Shown piece after piece: positions 4,584 to 58,317 of a stretch of DNA of 64,000 bases (position 1 is its first letter; every line of letters begins with the position of its first letter). A program made the translations under genes and the position numbers. The stretch lies in the IMG/VR virus record IMGVR_UViG_3300045988_087270, positions 1-64,000 of that record; one strand, written 5' to 3'. Source of the DNA: a virus. A model generated the notes under the pieces. It made no database searches and had not been told where the DNA came from. It was given only the letters and a program-made list of their open reading frames with translations.

Positions 4584-4920
4584 CATTGTAGATCCAATAA
4601 TATTTCAATATTGCTCTTTTAGAGTATTGATATATACTATGTGGGGAAAAGAAGCTGAAGATAAAGTATTTGAAGAATATAAAAAGTTAAGAGCTATAAA
4701 ATAAATATGGAAGAACATATTGATAACTCTATTAAAATAATTGATGATATGTTACACAACATAGACATTCTTATAAATTTATTAAAGTAATTATTAAACA
4801 TTTATTAAAATAAGTAAACAAATTTGGTTGCAAGACGGCAACACTTTTAGTCAAGGTAGTTCTACAACAGTATCTCATCCTGAAGGATTACCGAAAGGTA
4901 TTTATGAAGTAAAACTCTCA

Positions 4921-5076
4921 ATGGCTGGATTTTATTTAAGTAAAATCGCTGAGTCTTTTACGTTTGATTACAAACTGTATGGTCTAAATCAAAAATTTAT
5001 TGATTATGTCTTAAAGACATATGAGAACACTACAGGAAATTTAGGTATTTTGCTTGATGGAATCAAAGGATCTGGT
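4921..5076 (+). CDS. AAA+ ATPase, exon 1 (ends in Walker A ...DGIKGSG)
   Basis: ORF ends ...LDGIKGSGK then stop. Joining GGT(5076) to AAA(6388) gives GIKGSGKTVTAKKL, a complete P-loop. Start uncertain: ATG 4921 or TTG 4828. Confidence 0.6.
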
Positions 5077-5184
5077 AAAATTTAAGCAATTTCAGTAAGC
5101 TTAAATTTTTAAAAATTTTATATTTATTTGGATTTAATAAAATTTCATATATATTATAGTAATATTAATTTTAACTATATAAAT

Positions 5185-6237
5185 ATGAAATTTGTAATTA
5201 ATGAAGAATTAGGAGAAAAAATTAAGACTTTGTACTTAATAGATGGATTAAGCTGTACTAAGATTGGTAAAGAAGTAGGATTATCTACTTCTACTATAAG
5301 TTCATTTCTAAAAAGAAATGGGATTGAAGTAGTTAATAAACAAAACAAATTATTATTTGATCTAGATAAAGATATTATTCCTAAATATGAGCAAGGAATA
5401 AGTTTATCTAAATTAGCTAAAGAGTATCATACTTCTATCCAAACTTTGTCTAGAAAATTAAAAGCTAGAGGAATTGAAATAATTAATCATCAAAATGAAA
5501 CTAAGTTTAATGAACATATCTTCGATGTTATAGATACAGAGGAGAAGGCTTATTGGCTAGGATTTATATTTGCTGATGGTTATATTTCATCAAGAGATAA
5601 TGGTTTTGAACTATCTTTAAAAGGCTCTGATATTGAACACTTACATAAATTTAATAAGTTTATGGAGCATAATAAAGATAATGTCAAATTAGGGGAAGTT
5701 AAGTATAAAGATAAAACTTTTTTAAGGTGTCGCTGGGGAATAGTTAATAAGCACTTATGGAATACTCTAAATAATTTAGGATGTACTCCAAGAAAAAGTT
5801 TAACTCTTCAATTTCCTAATATTTCTGAAGAATTAGAAATTCCTTTTATTAGAGGGTACTTCGACGGAGATGGCTGTTTAAGTTACTATTAGAAGACAAA
5901 AATTATACCAAAAGCTTCATTTTTAGGAACTAGACAATTTTTAGTAAAGATACAAGCAATATTAAATAATTTTAATATAAAAAGTTCTTTAGTAAAAGAT
6001 CCCAGAATGGAAAGTACATTAATATTAAATATATCTTCAACAAATTCTTTAGATTTTTTAGACTTAGTATATAGTAATAGTTCCATTTATTTAGACAGAA
6101 AATATAAAAGATATAAAATTTTTAAAACTTGCCGTTCTAAACAGGAATGTTTAGAATTATTAGCGGGTGAAAACGGGGAAGGCTGTGATGCTAATCCCGT
6201 GGTAAATGAAGATAGTAACGAATCTTCATCACTGTAA
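5185..6237 (+). CDS. LAGLIDADG homing endonuclease (intron-encoded) with in-frame TAG at 5890-5892
   Basis: YWLGFIFADGYISS and RGYFDGDGCLSYY motifs. The product aligns full-length to the HE at 33854-34906 across the TAG; the track splits it into 5128-5892 and 6007-6237 in the same frame. Confidence 0.65.
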
Positions 6238-6344
6238 CGCGTAGAAGTTGAAACTCTTATAAGAGAATATAATACTTCCAAGAGCGCCCGCTCTCCCAAT
6301 CATTTGAATGGAGAAAAAGGTACGCTGAGCTATAACAAATAAGA

Positions 6345-6387
6345 AGTTATAGAAATATAGATAAAAAGCTATATGATAACAATACTG
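6345..6387 (+). repeat. conserved intron 3' terminal element, copy 1 of 3
   Basis: tatagaaatatagataaaaagctatatgataacaatactg; copies at 35016-35058 and 22660-22702 with covarying stem positions. Confidence 0.7.
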
Positions 6388-7275
6388 AAAACAGTCACCG
6401 CAAAGAAACTTTGTAATCATTTACAGCTTCCTGTAATCTTAGTACAATCAATGGGCAATGATACTAATGATAAATTAATAAAATATTTATCTACAGCCAT
6501 TGATTTTGACTGTATCTTCTTCTTTGATGAATATGAGAAAGAATTTAAAGATTCTTCTGATGTTCTTTCTTTTATGGATGGCACTTATAACTCTATTTAC
6601 CGTAAGATATTTTTACTTACTACTAATGAGTTGAATGTAGATTCAAATCTTCTTGGAAGACCTTCTAGAATAAGGTATAAAAAGTCTTTCGGTAATCTTT
6701 CAGAGGAAGTTACTAGAGAATTTCTTAATGACATCTTGGAAGATAAAACTGCTATAGAAAAGGTTATAAAATTAACTCATTCTATGAATATTATTACTAT
6801 AGATTTGATTAAAGCTATAGCAACTGAAATTAATATTCATGGAATAGAGTCTCTTCCTGATATTAAAGAAACCTTTAATATTGAGTTTTCTAGTTTCGCT
6901 TATTTATATAGGGAAATACAACTTAGACATTGTGATTTAAAGTTTACTCCTGAAAATATAGATAATATATTGAAAACTTATAATAAGTATAAGGAACTTA
7001 AAAAGAAAGGTTGGGAGAAGTATTCTGATGAAGAAAAAATGTTCGATGCTAAATGGTCTGCCATATTTAGTGAGGATTATGGTTCTACTATTGAAGATAA
7101 AGAGTTAAAATATCTGAAACCTGGAGACTATTTTGATGATCAGCGTATATTAATGGTAAATGTTAAAGAAAAGTATATAGTAACTATGACTGATTATGGA
7201 TATATTATAATATATTTAATTAATAGTTGCTATTCTGCAAGTAAAGCTACAGGTCTTATAAATTATAAATTATAA
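6388..7275 (+). CDS. AAA+ ATPase, exon 2
   Basis: Begins KTVTAKKL; Walker B FFFDEYE, sensor-1 LLTTN, GRPSRIRY arginine-finger region. Confidence 0.6.
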   Translation, partial: KTVTAKKLCNHLQLPVILVQSMGNDTNDKLIKYLSTAIDFDCIFFFDEYEKEFKDSSDVLSFMDGTYNSIYRKIFLLTTNELNVDSNLLGRPSRIRYKKSFGNLSEEVTREFLNDILEDKTAIEKVIKLTHSMNIITIDLIKAIATEINIHGIESLPDIKETFNIEFSSFAYLYREIQLRHCDLKFTPENIDNILKTYNKYKELKKKGWEKYSDEEKMFDAKWSAIFSEDYGSTIEDKELKYLKPGDYFDDQRILMVNVKEKYIVTMTDYGYIIIYLINSCYSASKATGLINYKL

Positions 7276-12213: not shown

Positions 12214-12294
12214 GTCTAGATAGCCAAGTGGTCAACGGCAGCAAGCTGTTAACTTGCCCCGAAAGGTTCCTAGGTTCGAATCCTAGTCTAGGCG
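12214..12294 (+). tRNA. type-II tRNA (Ser-like body, G73) with anticodon loop cuGUUaa
   Basis: Acceptor gtctaga/tctaggc, T-arm ctagg-ttcgaat-cctag, 3-bp D-stem with 11-nt D-loop, 12-nt variable arm, anticodon stem gcaag/cttgc; positions 34-36 read GUU. Confidence 0.55.
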
Positions 12295-12302
12295 CAATGA
12301 TA

Positions 12303-12365
12303 TATGCCTCTTATTTCTAAGGTTCATTACCTTCTCGAAAAGAAATGTGTACACAAGAGGCGCCT
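12303..12365 (+). other. structured RNA-like element (7-bp closing stem gcctctt/aagaggc, internal hairpins)
   Basis: Nested stems atttct/agaaat, aagg-ttcatta-cctt (T-arm-like) and palindrome gtgtacac, immediately 5' of the next tRNA. Confidence 0.3.
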
Positions 12366-12442
12366 GGAGTATTAAGCCCTGTTGGTAAGGGAACTAGACT
12401 GTCACTCTAGTAAAACTAAGGGTTCGAGTCCCTTATATTCCG
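12366..12442 (+). tRNA. tRNA-Asp(GUC), non-canonical D-arm
   Basis: Acceptor ggagtat/atattcc (one G-U), anticodon stem ctaga/tctag with loop cuGUCac, T-arm aaggg-ttcgagt-ccctt; the D-stem pairs only ccc/ggg. Confidence 0.5.
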
Positions 12443-12587
12443 CAAATAATGGAGAGCACCTAGCGTTTAACTGGGTAGTTGTTAGAGGTAGCGGTGGCAA
12501 TCCACGAGTATGCCTGATAGCTCAATATATTATTAGAATATGGTCACGATAGTTTGCCCGTCTAATGCCATATTTGCCTTTATTTAA

Positions 12588-12659
12588 GCTTCAATAGCAC
12601 AGTGGTAGTGCAGCATTCTTGTAAAATGCAGGTCGTAGGTTCAAATCCTACTTGAAGCT
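12588..12659 (+). tRNA. tRNA-Thr(UGU)
   Basis: Canonical cloverleaf: acceptor gcttcaa/ttgaagc, D-stem gcac/gtgc, anticodon stem gcatt/aatgc with loop cuUGUaa, T-arm gtagg-ttcaaat-cctac. Confidence 0.8.
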
Positions 12660-12668
12660 CTCTAATAT

Positions 12669-12740
12669 CGTGGGTTGTAGCAGTGGTAGCTTGTTTGTCT
12701 CATAAGCAAACGGTCATCGGTTCGAGTCCGATACCCACAA
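12669..12740 (+). tRNA. tRNA-Met or Ile2 (CAU)
   Basis: Acceptor cgtgggt/acccaca (1:72 C-A mismatch), anticodon loop cuCAUaa, T-arm atcgg-ttcgagt-ccgat. Confidence 0.65.
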
Positions 12741-12746
12741 CAAAAT

Positions 12747-12830
12747 TGTCTAGTATGTGAAGTGGTCAAACATGACTGACTGTAAATCAGCTGCTATTTA
12801 GCTTCGGGAGTTCGAATCTCTCCTAGACAA
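12747..12830 (+). tRNA. tRNA-Tyr(GUA), type II
   Basis: Acceptor tgtctag/ctagaca, anticodon loop cuGUAaa, long variable arm gctatttagc, T-arm gggag-ttcgaat-ctctc. Confidence 0.7.
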
Positions 12831-12850
12831 CTAATTAAAAAATAAATAAT

Positions 12851-13327
12851 ATGGAAAAAACTTTTAATTATCAATCTGATGCAAATTTCTATGATAAAAA
12901 GGATTTTATTATAGCTGTTTTAAAAAGAAAAATAAATAGTTTTAAAGAGTATGATGCTAAAAGAAAAAAGCATTATGCTGGACTAGAACAAAAAATTGGA
13001 GAATTAGAATCCTATATAGATGAATTAGAGAACGGACTTAGTATAGAATCTTTAAGTAATAAAATTCAATCTTTAGAAAATGAGATTGAGAAACAGAATC
13101 TTAAAATTAGAGAGTTAAGAGCTAAAGTTAATATATCTTTATTTGATGATACTAAGTCTTTTAGAGAATTAGAATCTATGGCAAATAATTTAAAAGACTT
13201 TAATAGCATGAAATTAGCTATTAAAGATCTTAGAAAACGGCTTAAAGATAACAAAAAAACTATATCTGATTTAATATATGAATTAACACAAGCTAAACTT
13301 AAAATAAAACAATTAACTGGAGAGTAA
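12851..13327 (+). CDS. coiled-coil hypothetical protein
   Basis: 158 aa; heptad-rich LENE/IEKQNLKIRELRAK. Confidence 0.5.
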   Translation: MEKTFNYQSDANFYDKKDFIIAVLKRKINSFKEYDAKRKKHYAGLEQKIGELESYIDELENGLSIESLSNKIQSLENEIEKQNLKIRELRAKVNISLFDDTKSFRELESMANNLKDFNSMKLAIKDLRKRLKDNKKTISDLIYELTQAKLKIKQLTGE

Positions 13328-13337
13328 TCTCCAATTT

Positions 13338-13411
13338 GGGGCGTCGGCTCAAGTGGTCAGCACCTGCTTTGCACGCAGGCATTCTTAGGAGTTCGAATCT
13401 CCTACGCTCCA
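13338..13411 (+). tRNA. tRNA-Ala(UGC)
   Basis: Acceptor ggggcgt/acgctcc with the G3:U70 identity pair, anticodon stem cctgc/gcagg with loop uuUGCac, T-arm aggag-ttcgaat-ctcct. Confidence 0.8.
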
Positions 13412-13431
13412 CTATTAAATTAAATATTTTT

Positions 13432-21284: not shown

Positions 21285-22271
21285 ATGACAACAGTTTTAG
21301 GTGATAAACTCAATAAAGCTTTTGAAGCTAAGAATAATGATGTAGAAACATTTCTCTGGAAAGGTTCCAGAAAAATTGTAAATGGTGAACGCGTTCAGTC
21401 TTCTATGAAAATGGTAGATATGACTGAGGAAGAATTACGTAATGCATATAAACATTGTGAATCAATGCTTTATAGTGACAACTATGAAAATCCTGGACGA
21501 CGAGTTTTGTTGGAACAGATTGAAGACCAAAGAACTCGCTGCAACGCTGAGTTATTTTTGATTTGGTTATTATATCCAGGTGAAGGTAGTACTAGACAAG
21601 GTATTGTAAGAACTAGTTTCTTTAATATGCTTAATCAACAAATTACTGCTCAAGCAGAACAGTTTGCTAAAGAGAATGCAGAAAGTGGAGAAGGCGAAAC
21701 AAATGTTAGTGCTATTGCAGAAACTCTTTTTAAAGAGTGGACTCTTAATGATATTATGAATAGTGATGAAGATTCATTTACTATGTTTGCTTCGTTGCCT
21801 TTATATATCGTTAGAGAAGCTTGTTTGTCTGCTTTAGGTAAATGTGTTCGTAAACACATTACTCTTACATTTATTACTGAGCTTGGATTGTGGTTTACAC
21901 GTTCTGAGTTATTGGAATTAAACAAGAAAGACGAGAATGGGCGTTTAGTAGATAGAATTAAGCAAGTTGCTGAACTTCTAAATATTAAACTGAGAGATCC
22001 TAAGAATCCTGAAGACAAGAAAGGTCTTGTTTTAAAAATTGATGATAGAAAAGGCTTAACTCTAAAAGAGTTTAGTGCAATGCTTACATTCCGTAAGGAT
22101 AAATATGATAAGCGTTATAATGATCTGACTAAAGTACAATTAGAAACCTTAAGAGATAAAGTTTTACTGCATCTTGAAAATAAGGTTAGATGGCAAGCTT
22201 CAGAATGGGAGAAGCGTATTAAACAAATTAAAGCAGTAGCTAAATATAATGGCTACAAACTCTCTGATTGA
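21285..22271 (+). CDS. hypothetical protein
   Basis: 328 aa, no motif recognised. Confidence 0.5.
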   Translation: MTTVLGDKLNKAFEAKNNDVETFLWKGSRKIVNGERVQSSMKMVDMTEEELRNAYKHCESMLYSDNYENPGRRVLLEQIEDQRTRCNAELFLIWLLYPGEGSTRQGIVRTSFFNMLNQQITAQAEQFAKENAESGEGETNVSAIAETLFKEWTLNDIMNSDEDSFTMFASLPLYIVREACLSALGKCVRKHITLTFITELGLWFTRSELLELNKKDENGRLVDRIKQVAELLNIKLRDPKNPEDKKGLVLKIDDRKGLTLKEFSAMLTFRKDKYDKRYNDLTKVQLETLRDKVLLHLENKVRWQASEWEKRIKQIKAVAKYNGYKLSD

Positions 22272-22380
22272 GGGAGAATTATTTCATAAAATCACTAGAG
22301 ATGAGCGACAAGAAGAGTGTCGTAGAAAATGGATAAAAAATCGTTGCGTTGGAACAATAGTTGCATCCACGGGATTTGGT
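22249..22380 (+). CDS. SF2 DEAH-box helicase, exon 1 (ends ...VASTGFG)
   Basis: The reading frame ends in the first half of Walker A. Joining GGT(22380) to AAA(22703) gives STGFGKS followed by motif Ia IIVPTETLQKQW. Confidence 0.6.
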
Positions 22381-22702
22381 ACTGTAAAAGCGGGTCATAT
22401 ACCCGTTAATTACGATGCCGTTCCGATAGAGGAATCTTCGGAATTATTATCGAGCAAAATCGGTGGAAGCCCTATAGAGGGTAATACCGAGGTAATAGAA
22501 GAAATTAAAGAATCTTCTACACCGTACAGCATAGAGAATGAACCTAATGAATAGTCTAGTTATTAACTAGACTATTTTTATTAGAATATAATTTCTCCAC
22601 GAGTGTTCGATGCCCCAACTGAAATAAGTGGGTAAAAATTTATGCGGGGCTTATTAGTAATAGTAAGAAGTATAGATAAAAAGCTATACGATAACAAGAC
22701 CG
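22381..22702 (+). mobile_element. ORF-less self-splicing intron (probable group I) at GGT^AAA of the helicase P-loop
   Basis: 322 nt; exon ends in U and intron ends in G; 3' ~45 nt homologous to the other two introns of this family; internal palindromic hairpin tagtctagtt/aactagacta. Confidence 0.6.
22660..22702 (+). repeat. conserved intron 3' terminal element, copy 3 of 3
   Basis: agtatagataaaaagctatacgataacaagaccg; stem gtatag/ctatac covaries with the other copies. Confidence 0.7.
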
Positions 22703-23860
22703 AAATCCAGAATAGGACTAAACTGTATTAAAACAGTGCTAAAACATTTTCCACAATATCGAGTACTAATAATTGTACCAACAGAAACTTTACAAAAGCA
22801 ATGGTATGGACATATAGACTCTAATGGATTAGGATTAAATTGTGATGTACAAATAATAAACACTGTAATAAAACATCCTGCCAAATATGATCTTTTAGTA
22901 CTGGATGAAGCTCATAGATATGCAGCTGAGACTTTTGTAAGATTATTTGAAGTAGTAAAATACCAATTTATCTTAGGTCTTACAGCTACTTTTGAGCGTC
23001 TTGATGGTAGGGATAAAATATTAGCACAATATTGTCCAGTAATTGATACTATTGATATTAATACTTGTCTTGCAAATGGTTGGGTTAGTCCATATAAAGA
23101 ATATCTAGTCTTAGTAAATGTTGATAATTTAGAAGAATATGAAAAAATAAATAAAGAATTCATTTCTCATTTTGAATTCTTCGGATTCTCTTGGGAGTTA
23201 GTTAATAAATTAGCTGGTCCTATGGGTTGGCGAAATAAACTACTCCTAAGAGATTCTATGTGTAGTGACCCTAACAAAAAATCTGAAGTATTACAAAGTA
23301 TAAATTATCATGCTATCAGATTTTGGGCTACTATGCACGAAAAGAAAGCTTTCATAAATAATCACCCAAAGAAAATTGAAATAGTAAAGAAAATTATAGA
23401 AGCTAGGAAGGATAAAAAAATAATAACTTTTGCCAATAATATTAAAATGGCAGAAAAAATTCCTAATGCTACTGTATATTCCAGTAGAACTTCTAAAAAA
23501 AGAAGTGCTACAGCTATTGAAGATTTTAACTCTGGAAAAATAACTTTATTATCTACAGTAAAAAAAGCTGATGAAGGGCTTGATGTGAAAGGTCTTTCTG
23601 TAGCTATTATATTTGGATTAGATAGCTCGACTACTAGAGCTTGTCAACGAAGAGGAAGATCGATTCGATTTGAACAAGGTAAGACAGCAGAAATATTCAA
23701 TATAGTATTGAATAGGACTCAAGAAACTAAGTGGTTTTATGATTCTCATAAAGGAGATTCTTTTATAACTATAGACGAATCAGAATTGGATAAAGTGTTA
23801 CAAGGTAAAGACTTTACTCCAGGTGAAAAGATAGTTCCTAAATTTGATTTTAGATTCTGA
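22703..23860 (+). CDS. SF2 DEAH-box helicase, exon 2
   Basis: Motif Ia PTETL, motif II LVLDEAH, motif III LTATFER, motif VI QRRGRSIR. Confidence 0.65.
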   Translation, partial: KSRIGLNCIKTVLKHFPQYRVLIIVPTETLQKQWYGHIDSNGLGLNCDVQIINTVIKHPAKYDLLVLDEAHRYAAETFVRLFEVVKYQFILGLTATFERLDGRDKILAQYCPVIDTIDINTCLANGWVSPYKEYLVLVNVDNLEEYEKINKEFISHFEFFGFSWELVNKLAGPMGWRNKLLLRDSMCSDPNKKSEVLQSINYHAIRFWATMHEKKAFINNHPKKIEIVKKIIEARKDKKIITFANNIKMAEKIPNATVYSSRTSKKRSATAIEDFNSGKITLLSTVKKADEGLDVKGLSVAIIFGLDSSTTRACQRRGRSIRFEQGKTAEIFNIVLNRTQETKWFYDSHKGDSFITIDESELDKVLQGKDFTPGEKIVPKFDFRF

Positions 23861-32559: not shown

Positions 32560-33786
32560 ATGAAACAAACAACAAAATCTTCTTATATTAAGTTCTTCAA
32601 TGATGCAATTAATAATAATCGTTCTTTAAAAGATCAATGTATTATATCAGAAAAAAATATAAATACTGTATATATGACAATGAAAAATCTTAGAAAGAAA
32701 GAAAATAAAGATGAAGATGATAAGAAGATATTGGAATTATATGACAGACTAAAGAATACTAAGAAAAAAGAAGTAAAAAAAGATACAGATAATGCTTCTA
32801 ATACTTGGGAAATAAGAGACGAAGAGACTGGTAAAATTACTGGATATAAGTTTGAGATTTTCAGAAGAAATAAGCCCGCAATCACAGGAGTCTTTACTAG
32901 AAACGAAATGAATAGTGTATATAGAATGTATACCTATTACGGTTCTGGTTTAACCCAGCAGATTGTCAGCAGATATTTCCCAGACTATTCTCTTATTGAC
33001 TTTAAAAGAATTTTACGAGCTTTTAATATTACTAAAGCATCCTCTCCATTTGCTCCTCATATGTATGAAGAATATACTGAGGATGAATTAAAAGAAATGC
33101 ATCTTAGAGAAAAAGAAAATGATTTCTTAAAAAGAATAGAGAAAGATGAAGTAAAGGATTTAAGAGCTTTAGTTACTAAGTTGACTAAGAAAACTTCTAA
33201 GTCTTTAAATAAGGAACTTATAGAAACTACTATTAAAAATACAGTAAAGGATTATAAAGAACTTCCAGTAAATATTAATAATAAAGAAACAAAATATCCT
33301 GATTTAATTATATGGTTATCTGATTTACATATCGGAGCTTATAATGCTAAGTATAGTAGTTTTGTACAGTTACCTTCTTATGATGTTCCAGAAATTAAAT
33401 CTAGATTATCTAGAATTGTAGAATCTTTTGTTGGACAAGAATATCATTCTGTATATGTAGTTAATCTTGGAGATTCTATTGATGGGTTCAATAAAGAAAC
33501 TACTAGAGGAGGTCATGAACTTCCTGAGATTCTTGATAATAAAGAAATTAGTGAAGCATTTATAGAATGTATGATGGAGTTCTTTGCTACTCTTACAGTA
33601 AAAGTAAAAAGCAAAGATTTTAATTATCTTTCTATAGGAGAATCTAATCATGGTGGGGATTTTGAATGGTTAAATCAAAAACTTTTAGCTGCGTATTTAA
33701 CTAAATATAATGTTAAGAGTTATATTAGTAATTATCCTATTGATAACTTTATTATTGGAGATCATCAATTCCTGTATGCTCACGGT
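32560..33786 (+). CDS. calcineurin-like metallophosphoesterase, exon 1 (ends ...FLYAHG)
   Basis: DLHIG, LGDSIDG and ESNHG motifs. The frame stops right after GGT(33786). Joining to AAA(35059) continues KDNNSQ... with the downstream GDLH and GHTK motifs. Confidence 0.55.
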
Positions 33787-33853
33787 AGAGTTTTGTAATA
33801 AATTTTAACATATTTTAATTATTATATTTCCGTGGAAGAGTTATAATACTCTC

Positions 33854-34906
33854 ATGGAAATATTAAATAATTTTTTAAATTCAGAATTAAAGCTAACTGC
33901 TTTTTGTAAAGCTAATAAAGTTAGCCGAGATTATTTAGAGCAATTATTAAAAGATAATAGCTATTCTTATAGTGTATATTTAACGGGTATAACTATTAAG
34001 AATTTAAATTTAGCTATAAAAGATTATATTAATTCTGATGCAGGATTACGTGCTTCCGCTATAAAATATAATATTGGAACACAAACTTTAAAAGCTCATT
34101 TAGTAACTTTAAATCTTTATAATCCTAATAAAAAGGGTAAAAAAGAAAAATCTTACAATGAACATTTTTTTGACAGTATAGACACTGAAGAAAAAGCTTA
34201 TTGGTTAGGATTTATATTTGCTGATGGTTATATTTATAGTTCCCCTCTAGATACATCCAAAGAAAGGATAGATTGGAACTTTGAACTATGTGCTAAAGGG
34301 GATGACAAAGAACATATGGAAAAATTTGCAAAAGCTATTGGATACAATAAAGAATTACATGTTACTAAAGCTGATAAATATGGACATACTAGATGTAGAG
34401 TATGTTTATCCAGTGAAATTTTATGGAAACAACTAAATTCTTTAGGATGTACTCCTAGAAAGAGTTTAACATTAAAATTTCCTGATGAAAGTATTTTTAA
34501 ATCCAAAGATTTAATTAGACATTTCATTAGAGGTTATTTTGATGGTGATGGATGTATTAGCTATGCTAATAAAGAACATACTATTCCAGTATATCAAATA
34601 CTTGGAACTAAAGAGTTTTTAAAGGTTATTATAAGTTATTTAAATATAGAAGAAACTTTATTTCATAATCATAATAATAAAAAAGAAGTTACTATGTATA
34701 TACAGGCTTCTAATAGAAAGGCTATGTATGTATTACATAAATTATATGATAATTGCTCAATCTATTTAAATAGAAAATATGAAAGATTTATTTATTTTTG
34801 CCGTATATTTGAGAAATCAAATATGTTAAAACAAACCAATATCGGTGAAAGCTGTGATGCTAATACCGAGATAACTACAGAAACTAAAGAGTCTGCAGCA
34901 TCGTAG
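33854..34906 (+). CDS. LAGLIDADG homing endonuclease (intron-encoded, intact)
   Basis: YWLGFIFADGYIYSS and RGYFDGDGCISYA motifs; full-length homolog of the HE at 5185-6237. Confidence 0.7.
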   Translation: MEILNNFLNSELKLTAFCKANKVSRDYLEQLLKDNSYSYSVYLTGITIKNLNLAIKDYINSDAGLRASAIKYNIGTQTLKAHLVTLNLYNPNKKGKKEKSYNEHFFDSIDTEEKAYWLGFIFADGYIYSSPLDTSKERIDWNFELCAKGDDKEHMEKFAKAIGYNKELHVTKADKYGHTRCRVCLSSEILWKQLNSLGCTPRKSLTLKFPDESIFKSKDLIRHFIRGYFDGDGCISYANKEHTIPVYQILGTKEFLKVIISYLNIEETLFHNHNNKKEVTMYIQASNRKAMYVLHKLYDNCSIYLNRKYERFIYFCRIFEKSNMLKQTNIGESCDANTEITTETKESAAS

Positions 34907-35015
34907 AGCGTAGAACTTGAACCTGAGAAATCAGAATAAAATAGTTCCAAGAGTGGTTTGCCCTCAGCACGTAAAGGTGGAGGTGAATATGTACGCCGAG
35001 CTATAGTAAATAAGA

Positions 35016-35058
35016 AACTATAGAAATACAGATAAAAAGCTGTATGATAACAAAACTG
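35016..35058 (+). repeat. conserved intron 3' terminal element, copy 2 of 3
   Basis: ctatagaaatacagataaaaagctgtatgataacaaaactg. Confidence 0.7.
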
Positions 35059-35358
35059 AAAGATAATAATTCTCAAACTAGACAATTTCCTCTTACTTTA
35101 AATCCTCAGACTGAATTATTCTTTGCTAATTATATAGCAGAAAAAGGTATATGTAGTCCTCATATTTATGTAGTAAAAGGTGATTTACATAATTATGCTT
35201 ATACTACTGGTAAACAGTTTGATTATATTTCAGTAGGTAGTATGTATGGTAGTAGTAATTATATTACAGCTAACTTTGGACATACTAAATGGAGTATTAA
35301 TTATACTATTGTAAAAGATAAAGATATTTTGATGGGAACTATTAAAGGAAATAATTAA
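35059..35358 (+). CDS. calcineurin-like metallophosphoesterase, exon 2
   Basis: Begins KDNNSQ...; carries the VVKGDLH and FGHTKW phosphoesterase motifs. The track ORF 35044 includes 15 nt of intron. Confidence 0.55.
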   Translation, partial: KDNNSQTRQFPLTLNPQTELFFANYIAEKGICSPHIYVVKGDLHNYAYTTGKQFDYISVGSMYGSSNYITANFGHTKWSINYTIVKDKDILMGTIKGNN

Positions 35359-37623: not shown

Positions 37624-39363
37624 ATGTTATTTATGGTAATAAAGAGAGACGGAAGTAAAGAAGAGTTTAACAGAAACAAAATTAGAGATGCTGTATTAAA
37701 AGCTTTTGGAGTTACCCAAAATTCTAATAAGACAATGGACGAAGATATTTACAGAGCAGTTACTGAAATAACTAATTCTGTAGTAGAGACTGAAGATCAA
37801 TCTATTGAAGATATTCAAGACCAAATTGAAGAACTTTTAATGGATTTAGGATATCACGACGTAGCTAAAAAATATATTCTATATCGTAAAGAACGTGAAG
37901 ATATTAGGAATCATGCTACTAGAGATATTGAATTTATTCATAATTTTGTAAAATCTGATAATACTGCTAATGCTACTATTGACGACAATAGTAATGTAGG
38001 AACTAAAGGTATTGGAGTATTAAACGCTGAAATACATAAAGTCGATAATAAACTTACTAATACAGAATGGTGGGAAAGTTTTGTAAAGAAGAGAGACCCT
38101 AACTTTAATATAAAAGTTATGAGGAATGATTTTAAAACTATTTTATATCCTCATGATTCATCTTCTCAAGTAGGAGAACCATATTGTATGGCAGCTTCTA
38201 TGTATCCTTTCTTGTTGTCTGGATTAGAGAAATTAGGAGGTAAATCAGCAGTTCCAAAGAACCTTGATTCACTCTGTGGTATTTATGTAAATCTAAACTT
38301 TGCATTAGCTTCTGAAATTAAAGGAGCAGTAGCTACTCCTGAGTTTCTGATGTATATGGATTATTTCTGTAGAAAAGAATGGGGAAATAATTATTATCTT
38401 AAACCAAGTGTAAGAATAACTACAGATTACTGTATAAAACAGAAAACTATTGGTAGTCAAATTGATCAATATTTCCAACAAGTAACTTATTCTATTAATC
38501 AAATAGCTGGAGCTAGAGGAATGCAGTCTCCATTTACAAATTTTTCATTCTTCGATAAATATTTCTTTGAAGGTATGTTTGGAGAATTTGTATTTCCAGA
38601 TGGAACAAAGCCAGAATGGAATTCTACTAATTGGTTACAAAGACGTTATTTACATTGGTTAAACCAAGAAAGATTAAAATGTATTTTAACATACCCTGTA
38701 TGTAGCTATGCTTGCTTAACAGATAAGGAAGGTAATTTTAAAGATTTAGATACTTTCCATTTTATATGCAATGAATATGCTCAAGGAAATTCTTTCTTTA
38801 CTTATTTATCTCGTAGCGTAGATAGTTTAAGTTCATGTTGTCGTTTACAGAATGCAGTACAGGAAAATACATTTAATACTACTAATGGTCAAATAGGTGT
38901 AATGACTGGTAGTAAGAATGTCATCACTCTTAATTTAAATAGAATTATTCAGGATTGGCAGCATACTTGGTCTGATTATAAAGACCATATTGATGTTAAT
39001 ACCAATAGATGCTGTTTCCCAGTAGATTGGATTACACATAAAGATTTCCAAGAAGGAATTAAGAAATATATAGAAAATATTCTTGAAAGAGTTTATTTGT
39101 ATCAATATGCTTATAACGACTTAATGCATTGGTGCAAAGACCATCATTTATATGCTGCTTATGATGCTGGTTTTATTAATCTTGATAAGCAGTATTTAAC
39201 TATTGGAATTAATGGCTTAAATCAGGCTGCTGAATACTTAGGAATGGAATGTAATAATAATATTTATTATAAGACATTCTGTAGATTAATATTCAGTACC
39301 ATAAAAGAGCAGAATAAGAAACATAAAACTAAAACAGCTCAATTTAATACTGAACAAGTGCCT
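37624..39363 (+). CDS. nrdD: anaerobic ribonucleoside-triphosphate reductase NrdD, exon 1
   Basis: N-terminal ATP-cone (VIKRDGSKEEFNRNKIRDAVLKAF); large class III RNR body; ends ...FNTEQVP. The ORF continues only 10 codons into the intron before a stop. Confidence 0.7.
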
Positions 39364-40625
39364 AGACGTGTGGGCACTATAAATCTCTTTTAATTGACTC
39401 GAAACTCCTTAAATTAAGGACAACGAGGGGCAAGCAATAATTATTATAATTATGGGCAGCCTGAGAGACTAAATAAAGAGAATTTTAAATAAATTTATTT
39501 AAAGTATATAATAGTCCGAACTCTATGGTAACATAGAGAGAGAAAATCGAAGAATTTTCTCCGTTAATAATATAATATACAAAATAATTTTGATTCCCGA
39601 GGATGAGGGTCTATAATTGTTCTATAACAGTAAATATAAAAATTATAGTTTATGGAACAAAAATTAGACATTTTAAAAGTAAGAAATTTAGTAAAAGAAA
39701 AAAGAGTAAGAAAAAGAATACCAGATGAATGTACCTGTGAAGTATGCGGAAGTACTAAAGGAGAAGGGAAACTTAGAAGATTCAATGATTATATAGTTTG
39801 TGAAAAACACTATGACCAATTAAATAAATATGGTAAAATCACCGATACTTCTAAAAGAAAACACAAAAAGCCTTTAGAAAAATGTAGTATTTGTGGAGGT
39901 TTAAAAATGGCTTCTTTTGAAGGAACCCCATATTGTCGTAAACATTATATCCAAATAACTAGGCATGGGGTTATTAGAGATAGAACTATCTATGATGCTA
40001 ACGAATATGTTATTCATGAAGATTATGTAGAAGTAAAATGTTTTGATAAAAATGGTAATTATAAAGCTAGCACCAAAGTTGACTTAGAATTTTTACCTGA
40101 TATTAAAAAACATAAAATCTATATAAGAAAAAGTGGTATTAAAGAATATGCAGCATTTTCAGGAATAGAAAATGAAGAAGGTTCTGGTAAAAAATACTTT
40201 GTACATAGATATATAATGCATCTTCACGATAAAAAATATAATATTGATGAAGTAGTAGACCATATCAATGGGGATTCTTTAGATAATAGGATTTCAAATC
40301 TTAGAGTTTGTACTCAAAAAGAAAATTCTTATAATAACAGAGGAACAAAATTAAATCAAAAAATTAAAGGAGTAAACTGGCTTAAAGTAAATAAAAAATG
40401 GACGGCTAGAATAATGTACAATTATAAAAGTATACATCTTGGAAATTATTTTACTTATGCTGAAGCTGTATTAGCTAGAATAAAAAAAGAACAAGAATTA
40501 TTTGGTGAATATGGTCCTAACAAAGATTTATATTATATTATTAATCATCCTTCGCCAATAGAGGAATTAAATAAAATATTAGAAATTCCTTCTATAGAAG
40601 GAGCGTAACAGAATGGCAGAAAGCG
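39364..40625 (+). mobile_element. group I intron 1 of nrdD with HNH-AP2 endonuclease ORF
   Basis: P1: exon gtgcct pairs with IGS gggcac at 39373-39378. R-like gagagacta, S-like aagtatataatagtccgaac, P9 hairpin ctatggtaacatagag. Ends ...gtaacagaatG. Splicing gives FNTEQVP|AESASVKLY. Confidence 0.7.
39652..40608 (+). CDS. HNH-AP2 homing endonuclease (intron-encoded)
   Basis: HNH_3 motif VDHINGDSLDNRISNLRVCTQKEN, AP2-like KGVNWLKVNKKWTARI...; paralog of 42035-42805. Confidence 0.65.
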   Translation: MEQKLDILKVRNLVKEKRVRKRIPDECTCEVCGSTKGEGKLRRFNDYIVCEKHYDQLNKYGKITDTSKRKHKKPLEKCSICGGLKMASFEGTPYCRKHYIQITRHGVIRDRTIYDANEYVIHEDYVEVKCFDKNGNYKASTKVDLEFLPDIKKHKIYIRKSGIKEYAAFSGIENEEGSGKKYFVHRYIMHLHDKKYNIDEVVDHINGDSLDNRISNLRVCTQKENSYNNRGTKLNQKIKGVNWLKVNKKWTARIMYNYKSIHLGNYFTYAEAVLARIKKEQELFGEYGPNKDLYYIINHPSPIEELNKILEIPSIEGA

Positions 40626-56711: not shown

Positions 56712-56983
56712 TAATCCTTAAATTATTACAATTTTGTGGCACTCTATGGAAACATAGAGAATAAAAAATTGGGTGAATTGCAGGAACTTAAGGAAAATCT
56801 GCAGCCAAGCCAACCTTTAACAAAGTTGGAAGGTTCAACGACTAACTCTTGAAACTTCGTAAGAAGAATATAATAGAGACACGAGCGCCCAACACCTAAA
56901 CTATAAAGTAAGGTGATGAAATAGTCTAGCCTATATGGTAACATATAGAGCCTTGGATAAAGAGCCAAGGGTTAATACACGCG
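56712..56983 (+). mobile_element. ORF-less group I intron (td/IA2-like) in polA
   Basis: P1: exon gccat pairs with IGS gtggc at 56736-56740. P gaattgcagg, Q aatctgcagccaag, R gttcaacgactaac, S aaatagtctagcc, P9 hairpin ctatatggtaacatatag. Ends in G. Splicing gives AKGIEFAI|NYGGDF. Confidence 0.75.
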
Positions 56984-57452: not shown

Positions 57453-58317
57453 AAATAATCTTGTCGTAGTAAAACGATGTTAATTGCTTGGAACTCCTAA
57501 AGATTTAATTACTAAATTATTGAAATAATAAACCAGTAAAAATATTAAATATGATTTTACCTCAGTTAAAAGAAATGGACAATAAGCAGCTTTATAATTT
57601 TACAAGAGAACAAACTCAAGTATTTCTAACAGGACTGCTAGGTGATGGATGTATATCTACTACAAATAGTGGTAGTTATATTTATACTACAAATTGTAAG
57701 CATCTTGAATATTTAGAATTTAAAAAGAAATTATTAGGTAAAGGAAATATTAGACTCCAAGAAAGAAATGGCTATAGTCAAACTCCTATATATACTATGT
57801 ATGGGGGAGCTTACCCAGAATTATTTGAGTTTAAAGAATTTACTGTTCAAGATGTTATTGAAAACTTAGATTTACTTGGGTTAGCATTATGGTTTTACGA
57901 TGATGGTAGCCTTCATAAAAGAGATTTACATTATAATTTAAATACTCAAAAGTTCCCAAAGTATATACAAGAAGGAATTTTTATTCCATGGTTTGATTCC
58001 TTAGGCATTAAAGCTAATTTAAGACATGATACAAAAAGAGGAAAAGAATTGTATTATTTAGGAATTAATAAATATGAAGGAGCTAATATTATTAGTGAAA
58101 TACTATCACGTTATCCATTAGATTGTTACTCTTATAAATTATGGAGTTCAGAGACTATCCTGAAATGGAGTAAGCTGCAAGAGCAGGTGAAAAGCATCGA
58201 TGAAAATCTTACTAATAGGCAATTAGCTTATAAGTGGAGGTTTTTATAAGATATAGTCCGAACCTATATGAAAGTATAGGAGAATATATGGAATCGATAT
58301 ATTCGTAACAATATATG
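57453..58317 (+). mobile_element. group I intron in polA with LAGLIDADG ORF
   Basis: P1: exon acgat pairs with IGS gtcgt at 57464-57468. 3' S box aagatatagtccgaacc and P9 hairpin cctatatgaaagtatagg (GAAA loop). Ends ...tatatG. Splicing gives ...TPYD|EINCEAP.... Confidence 0.65.
57551..58249 (+). CDS. LAGLIDADG homing endonuclease (intron-encoded)
   Basis: LTGLLGDGCIS and LALWFYDDGSL dodecapeptide motifs. Confidence 0.7.
   Translation: MILPQLKEMDNKQLYNFTREQTQVFLTGLLGDGCISTTNSGSYIYTTNCKHLEYLEFKKKLLGKGNIRLQERNGYSQTPIYTMYGGAYPELFEFKEFTVQDVIENLDLLGLALWFYDDGSLHKRDLHYNLNTQKFPKYIQEGIFIPWFDSLGIKANLRHDTKRGKELYYLGINKYEGANIISEILSRYPLDCYSYKLWSSETILKWSKLQEQVKSIDENLTNRQLAYKWRFL

Follow-up and report, generated by a model that had tools for sequence, protein, structure and literature searches.

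A covarying terminal hairpin in three predicted group I introns of a phage genome

Three genes in a 64,000-nt stretch of gut-phage DNA (IMG/VR record IMGVR_UViG_3300045988_087270, positions 1 to 64,000; hereafter the window) carry inserts that end in the same short hairpin, whose stem changes its letters while keeping its pairs. We read this hairpin as the last stem-loop, of the P9.1 or P9.2 type, of three mobile group I introns, a reading to which we give a probability of about 0.9 and in which the loop and the adjoining tail would dock elsewhere in the intron. The original prediction had named neither the class of intron nor the helix; the hairpin is the last peripheral one, located after P9. 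The finding is correct but commonplace for so well-known a kind of RNA.

The hairpin and its three copies

Re-reading the window sequence recovered three hairpins with an identical loop and a shared end, all on the + strand, exactly where they had been reported. Copy 1, read from the sequence, is a 6-bp stem, ATATAG-ATAAAAAG-CTATAT, at 6355-6374, and its loop in RNA letters is AUAAAAAG. Copy 2, GTATAG-ATAAAAAG-CTATAC (GUAUAG / CUAUAC as RNA), lies at 22670-22689, and copy 3, ATACAG-ATAAAAAG-CTGTAT (AUACAG / CUGUAU as RNA), at 35026-35045; both are given by the sequence and by minimum-energy folding. The 3' tail of copy 1, GAUAACAAUACUG at 6375-6387, finishes with the terminal G (ωG) at 6387, directly after which lies the 3' splice site of intron 1. 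The corresponding tails with their ωG occupy 22690-22702 and 35046-35058 (+ strand), and the arrangement 3' of every hairpin is GATAACAA, four variable bases and G (3/3 copies). The block from loop to tail is present at three places in the window, against 0 in 100 shuffles, and the copies are also similar over ~150 nt upstream of the hairpins.

The claim that positions 6238-6387 form a shared intron 3' domain agrees with the family covariance model R1, built from alignment A1, which places this domain, from the P7 5' strand to the terminal G, at 6233-6387. The stem differences are pairing-preserving substitutions, as had been proposed, with two true double changes that keep Watson-Crick pairing: relative to copy 1, the first pair of copy 2 goes from A-U to G-C, and the fourth pair of copy 3 from U-A to C-G.

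Covariation among relatives

Covariation among three window copies is by itself thin evidence, and larger samples decide. Relatives were collected by sequence-anchored scans (at least 120 loci), and related sequences inflate the resulting counts, which are not numbers of independent events. The first homologue set was selected on 6/6 pairing, which makes it circular for the hairpin helix, yet it displays great stem diversity: among its 52 relatives, five of the six hairpin pairs change on both sides. The second set was recruited only through P7.1, P3' and the P7 3' strand, without the hairpin. Among the matches listed, it comprises 136 usable unique sequences, 134 of them with a loop of the form A[UC]AA[AU]AA[AG], and all six pairs are formed in 130 of these 134 independently recruited relatives; when arms are swapped between introns, only 7.5% remain fully paired. 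Full pairing is also found in 90 of the 94 relatives absent from the first set. In a first count, the independently recruited set contained 81 distinct stems; three relatives have A-U in place of the closing G-C pair. The stem covariation thus holds in more homologues, the check that accompanied the original prediction.

Stem cells outside Watson-Crick pairing in the independently recruited set are G·U in 42 cases and A·C in 1, an excess indicating that the + strand RNA is what folds. This bears out the claim that the region acts as RNA structure, and specifies that it is the transcribed + strand that forms it. Pairing is the sole constraint on the stem, which accounts for its free covariation. 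The loop AUAAAAAG and the tail, GAUAACA in most relatives, are nearly invariant, and for this reason covariation cannot reveal their contacts.

Three introns, their host genes and their boundaries

All three inserts (+ strand) interrupt recognisable genes. Intron 1 (5077-6387; R1 143 bits on 6233-6387) lies in an AAA-type ATPase gene with exons 4828-5076 and 6388-7275. Intron 2 (22381-22702; R1 124 bits) is an ORF-less element of 322 nt in an SF2 helicase gene with exons 22249-22380 and 22703-23860, while intron 3 (33787-35058; R1 133 bits) resides in a calcineurin-like phosphoesterase gene with exons 32560-33786 and 35059-35358. Intron 1 splits the Walker A motif GSG|KT, intron 2 the Walker A motif GFG|KS and intron 3 the sequence YAHG|KDN; excision in silico restores GIKGSGKT, STGFGKS and YAHGKDN, respectively, each in frame. 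Furthermore, the Pfam domain AAA (PF00004) runs across the junction of the spliced ATPase, and ResIII/DEAD across that of the spliced helicase. The insertion site, GGT|AAA (Gly|Lys), is common to all three (5074-5079, 22378-22383 and 33784-33789), and in 3/3 copies the last base of the intron is a G directly before the exon.

The closest public genome, MT835492.1, is an unannotated 121.6-kb phage from human faeces that carries the phosphoesterase gene without intron 3, the DNA match being restricted to the exons. The spliced phosphoesterase protein of the window aligns with that of MT835492.1 in one contiguous match of 98.1% identity. The empty site reads CACGGA|AAAGAC, compared with CACGGT[intron]AAAGAT in the window, so that the last base of the 5' exon is U in the intron-bearing allele and A in the intron-less one. 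This natural allele indicates that the boundaries of intron 3 are right and that its exons are joined as predicted, within an ambiguity of one base that arises because the insert and exon 2 both begin with A. Genes interrupted by the copies, motifs restored by their removal and an allele that lacks the insert together sustain the description of a shared intron. Next to the empty site, the two alleles are also unlike in the first ~12 nt of exon 2 (GACTCGAGAAAT vs GATAATAATTCT), which may be a co-conversion tract.

MT835492.1 carries intron 1 as well, and its helicase intron contains an endonuclease ORF, which intron 2 of the window lacks. Two other kinds of intervening element were considered and rejected: a group II intron, since a GUGYG 5' end and domain V/VI are both lacking and the last base is G, and an intein, since the inserts contain stop codons. 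The three inserts are, as judged from their sequences, group I introns, and their splicing is predicted.

Group I fold of the family

The full fold was drawn by hand on copy 1 and counted on 37 diverse cores (alignment A2; 62 pairs). In these 37 cores, 92.7% of cells are paired under the full model, against 65.9% after shuffling and 32-42% with slid partners. All helix coordinates below refer to intron 1, + strand, unless another copy is named.

P1 joins the internal guide sequence GCCG (6131-6134) to the exon end UGGU (5073-5076), with a U·G pair at the splice site. The same guide occurs in intron 2 (22417-22420, + strand), where it faces UGGU, and in intron 3 (34800-34803, + strand), where it faces CGGU. 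P1 is short (4-5 bp), and the U at position -1 stands opposite the guide G in all three copies; TGCCG is kept in most of the 37 aligned cores. P10, read from the sequence, is weak, with 1-5 possible pairs between UU, U or UUUUU upstream of GCCG and the exon AAA. P2 (6135-6156) is 70-78% paired in A2, in a variable region with imperfect alignment, and the P4-P5 hairpin (6174-6199), which has AA internal loops (J4/5 and J5/4), is 83.7% paired; the lower scores of P2 and P4/P5 (70-84%) are mainly attributable to one subclade that aligns badly.

The remaining core helices score higher. P3 (6163-6169 with 6285-6291), which forms a pseudoknot with P7, is 96.9% paired in A2 and shows double-sided changes at 7/7 pairs across the 37 cores. 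P6 (6206-6229) is 97.6% paired, with 7/7 pairs covarying, and P8 (6293-6313) is 92-94% paired, with 4/4 pairs covarying. P7 consists of a 5' strand (A, a bulged C and GCGUA; 6237-6243) and the 3' strand UACGCU (6321-6326); it is 100% paired in A2, its G-C and C-G pairs are invariant (37/37), its middle pair is GC in 19 and AU in 18 of the 37 cores, and the pair across the one-base bulge covaries as AU (18), GC (11) and CG (8). On the strength of this secondary structure, P7 is proposed as the guanosine-binding helix. P7.1 (6244-6278) comprises a 5-bp proximal stem, an invariant internal loop, UGAAN / AAUAUAAU, and an optional distal hairpin; it is 100% paired, with covariation at 4/5 pairs.

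The order of elements 3' of the P7 3' strand is the P9.0 bases, P9, a GAA linker, the terminal hairpin and the tail. P9.0 pairs AG (6328-6329) with CU (6385-6386), immediately ahead of the terminal G, and so connects J7/9 with the bases that precede ωG. Its two pairs are formed in 52/52 and 44/52 relatives, and both together in 85%, compared with 51% after shuffling. The P9 hairpin, CUAUAAC / GUUAUAG (6330-6352), found in the minimum-energy fold, is 97-99% paired, and 6/7 of its pairs covary in A1 and 5/7 in A2. The terminal hairpin is paired in 100% of the A2 cells (37 cores) and is followed by GAUAACAA, a further 2-4 bases, the closing dinucleotide of P9.0 and ωG. Minimum-energy folding recovers both P9 and the terminal hairpin in 4/4 window introns to which it was applied.

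Proposed role of the hairpin and alternative explanations

At the level of secondary structure, P9.0 closes a small three-way junction, with P9 and the terminal hairpin as its arms, and this junction brings ωG next to P7, the proposed guanosine-binding helix, where ωG would take part in the second step of splicing. The stem is most likely a sequence-free strut. By analogy, the invariant A-rich loop AUAAAAAG, and perhaps the tail GAUAACAA, may make A-minor contacts with the equally invariant internal loop of P7.1 (AAUAUAAU) or with the core; such docking would hold the 3' domain in place, present the terminal G to the active site and stabilise that site for exon ligation. The model for this is the cryo-EM structure of the C. 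albicans mtLSU intron (PMC12088405), in which A-minor contacts of P9.1 and P7ext steady the active site.

The loop and tail might instead be a platform for a protein cofactor, either an intron-encoded maturase or a host factor, with a stem that just presents the loop. The near-invariance of loop and tail, with which nothing was found to covary, is compatible with this idea, and LAGLIDADG proteins can serve as maturases (PMC3984707). However, both persist in copy 2, which lacks an ORF, and in relatives whose ORFs differ in type or position; for example, the ORFs end just before the hairpin at three loci (L035, L099, L107) and lie in P7.1 at two others (L079, L114). A loop kept across ORF types and positions is not tied to one encoded protein, and the contacts that P9.1 makes in the solved IA-type intron are A-minor contacts between RNA and RNA (PMC12088405). 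We therefore regard a protein platform as unlikely.

Still less probable, to the point of being hard to credit, is a hairpin that works as DNA, namely as a subterminal hairpin for a transposase or endonuclease, like the end of an IS200/IS605 element or an IStron. DNA hairpins covary too, and in IStrons the final P9.x hairpin of a group I intron is directly followed by an IS element (PMC4227781); yet in the window no transposase ORF is located 3' of the hairpin, only 13 nt separate the hairpin from the next exon, the ratio of G·U to A·C cells given above is a strand-specific RNA signature, and the hairpin sits within the junction closed by P9.0 beside ωG. Finally, recent descent from duplicated DNA with two changes by chance, or a terminator for the endonuclease gene, which might be entertained because the three window copies display no more than two double changes, is refuted by the pairing counts in both homologue sets, including the contrast between the independently recruited relatives and the swapped arms, while there is no U-run 3' of the stem and the hairpin is kept in ORF-less introns.

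Endonuclease genes, mobility and choice of site

The introns are mobile elements, and their presence differs between the window phage and its closest relative. Introns 1 and 3 encode LAGLIDADG proteins, with the motifs LGFIFADGY and IRGYFDGDGC in both ORFs, and these ORFs sit between the 5' splice site and the guide GCCG. That of intron 1 (5185-6237, + strand), which extends from the P1 loop through P2-P6, matches Pfam LAGLIDADG_3 (1.7e-10) and HTH domains; that of intron 3 (33854-34906, + strand; LAGLIDADG_3 3.6e-07), which lies in the P1 loop and overlaps P2-P6, is intact and encodes 350 aa. The ORF of intron 1 has an in-frame TAG at 5890-5892 and is probably decaying. Recoding of TAG was rejected: the window contains no suppressor tRNA, and TAG ends 4/46 long frames, so that a decaying ORF is more likely than recoding. 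The six tRNA genes at 12214-13412 of the window are for Asn, Asp, Thr, Met, Tyr and Ala, with no suppressor among them. Several stages of the homing cycle are found together: an intact ORF (intron 3), an ORF bearing a TAG (intron 1), a lost ORF (intron 2) and an empty site (MT835492.1).

Regarding the choice of site, two of the three window introns are inserted in Walker A motifs. Among the matches listed for the independently recruited set, the first 3'-exon codon is Lys in 36 of 132 relatives, and the 3' exon starts with Lys-Ser/Thr in 24 of 132. Judged by its base pairing, the conserved guide GCCG would fit GGU| sites. In the literature on Walker A targeting, and likewise on Twort P9.1 contacts, nothing specific was found.

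Curated models, sister introns and the wider family

The Rfam scan of the whole window returned no group I intron match in 64 kb, and RF00028 gave no match at E<=10 on copies 1 and 2 scanned alone, even as short stretches. Control scans with RF00028 scored 64-101 bits for three Twort introns and 40 bits for T4 td. Scans of ~400-nt stretches with the same model recovered two other introns of the window above the gathering score. These two were lost from the whole-window scan to speed filters, and a negative whole-window Rfam scan is therefore unreliable for group I introns.

One of them, in the DNA polymerase gene (56718-56983, + strand), scores 91.9 bits with RF00028 (56718-56948) and 83.6 bits with R1 (E 9e-19). 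This sister intron shares P7.1, P9, a terminal hairpin (CCUUGG-AUAAAGAG-CCAAGG) and the tail, and it keeps the usual P7, GACUA/UAGUC. The other, near 39.4 kb (39354-39590), scores 51.9 bits with RF00028 when scanned alone. A second DNA polymerase intron at about 57460-58313 (R1 E 0.0045) contains a LAGLIDADG ORF at 57551-58249. At least six group I introns are thus present in the 64-kb window. Two Twort introns align with R1 as well (E 1.6e-4 and 1.7e-3), over P7, P9, the terminal hairpin and the tail.

On the evidence of their aligned sequences, the three copies represent a group I clade whose P7 has changed to GCRUA/UAYGC. The Rfam model omits the P7 pairing (PMC2238919), and the failure of Rfam to detect the three copies probably stems from this omission combined with the altered P7. 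Their subgroup is described as 'IA-like' only. A broader proposal, which we consider speculative and rather improbable, is that they belong to a large phage-borne IA-like clade, unseen by the curated Rfam model, whose choice of site is partly guided by RNA through reverse splicing. If this were true, the clade would be marked by the GCRUA/UAYGC P7, by a single P7.1 whose internal loop is invariant, and by an L9.1 loop and tail that are likewise invariant. In that event, the conserved guide GCCG would limit the clade to GGU| sites, which would account for the invasion of three unrelated genes of one genome at GGT|AAA and for the roughly one-fifth of relatives that lie at Walker A Gly|Lys-Ser/Thr codons, and insertion sites would be partly RNA-guided rather than purely endonuclease-guided.

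Consequences for annotation and further loci

Introns of this kind are missed by standard tools, and ORF callers then report gene fragments. Almost all long ORFs of the window are on the + strand. In copies 1 and 3, the 3' arm of the hairpin and the tail create an ATG (cuAUGAUAACAA; 6373 and 35044) in frame with exon 2, so that ORF callers open a separate 'gene' within the intron (6373-7275 and 35044-35358). A covariance model of these introns would correct the gene models of many gut-phage genomes.

Further loci display other arrangements. In Streptococcus phage Javan355 (MK448738.1; L122, 2540-2709), R1 finds an unannotated intron of the same family with 123.6 bits, and the annotation of the tape-measure gene of this phage consists of two CDS that flank a 'homing endonuclease'. 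At another locus (L050), two introns of the family are only about 20 nt apart. In the clade of L041 (L041, L066, L075 and L106), an intein-like C-terminus (...THN|CD) is located immediately upstream of the intron core, so that one gene seems to hold an intein and an intron side by side.

Comparison with known systems

The Twort orf142 introns (IA2; crystal structure 1Y0Q) resemble the window introns in being phage-borne, in interrupting protein-coding genes and in ending with a terminal G. The design of their 3' region is also alike, with P7' UAGUC-UGAAC, P9, a GAAG linker, a terminal hairpin GAUAGG...CUAUUC and the tail GUAACAUAAUUG, although P7 is GACUA/UAGUC in Twort and GCRUA/UAYGC in the three-copy family. 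Twort has both P7.1 and P7.2, with a AGUAGGGUCAAGUGACUCGAAA motif, and a terminal loop AGUAACGAA, in agreement with the database sequence; unlike Twort, the family has a single extended P7.1 and the loop AUAAAAAG. The pair P7.1 plus P7.2, an IA2 trait, is absent from alignments A1 and A2, in which one helix stands between P7 and P3'.

In IA2 introns, a motif of the GAACAA/GAAUAA type comes after P9.0, P9.1 and P9.2 (PMC4227781), and the family likewise has the IA2-type extended domain 9 (P9.0, P9 and a further P9.x) with a GAAYAA-type tail. Judged from sequence and predicted fold, it departs from textbook IA2 introns by its one extended P7.1, its changed P7 and its different terminal loop. The position of the window hairpin corresponds to P9.1 in Twort and to P9.2 in T4 td and IStrons. 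Post-hairpin motifs in introns of the td and IStron type are GAACGA, GAACAA and GAAUAA (PMC4227781); that of T4 td, GAACAUAAUG, is comparable to GAUAACAA of the window family. T4 td differs in having three hairpins after P7', where the window family has two, and its ORF encodes a GIY-YIG enzyme, whereas introns 1 and 3 carry LAGLIDADG ORFs in the P1 loop. In Clostridioides IStrons, an IS element follows the last hairpin; the window introns have none. The likeness of the phage family to the C. albicans mtLSU intron, which belongs to a mitochondrial rRNA, is by analogy (PMC12088405).

In human-gut crAss-like phages, group I introns are reported to crowd core replication genes, among them those for ATPase and polymerase, the introns having been detected through endonuclease protein domains (Yutin et al. 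2021, PMC7886860). Relatives of the 3' domain occur in the crAss-like genomes cr118_1 and cr6_1. A dense population of group I introns in gut phages has thus already been reported, and the three copies described here add new members to it.
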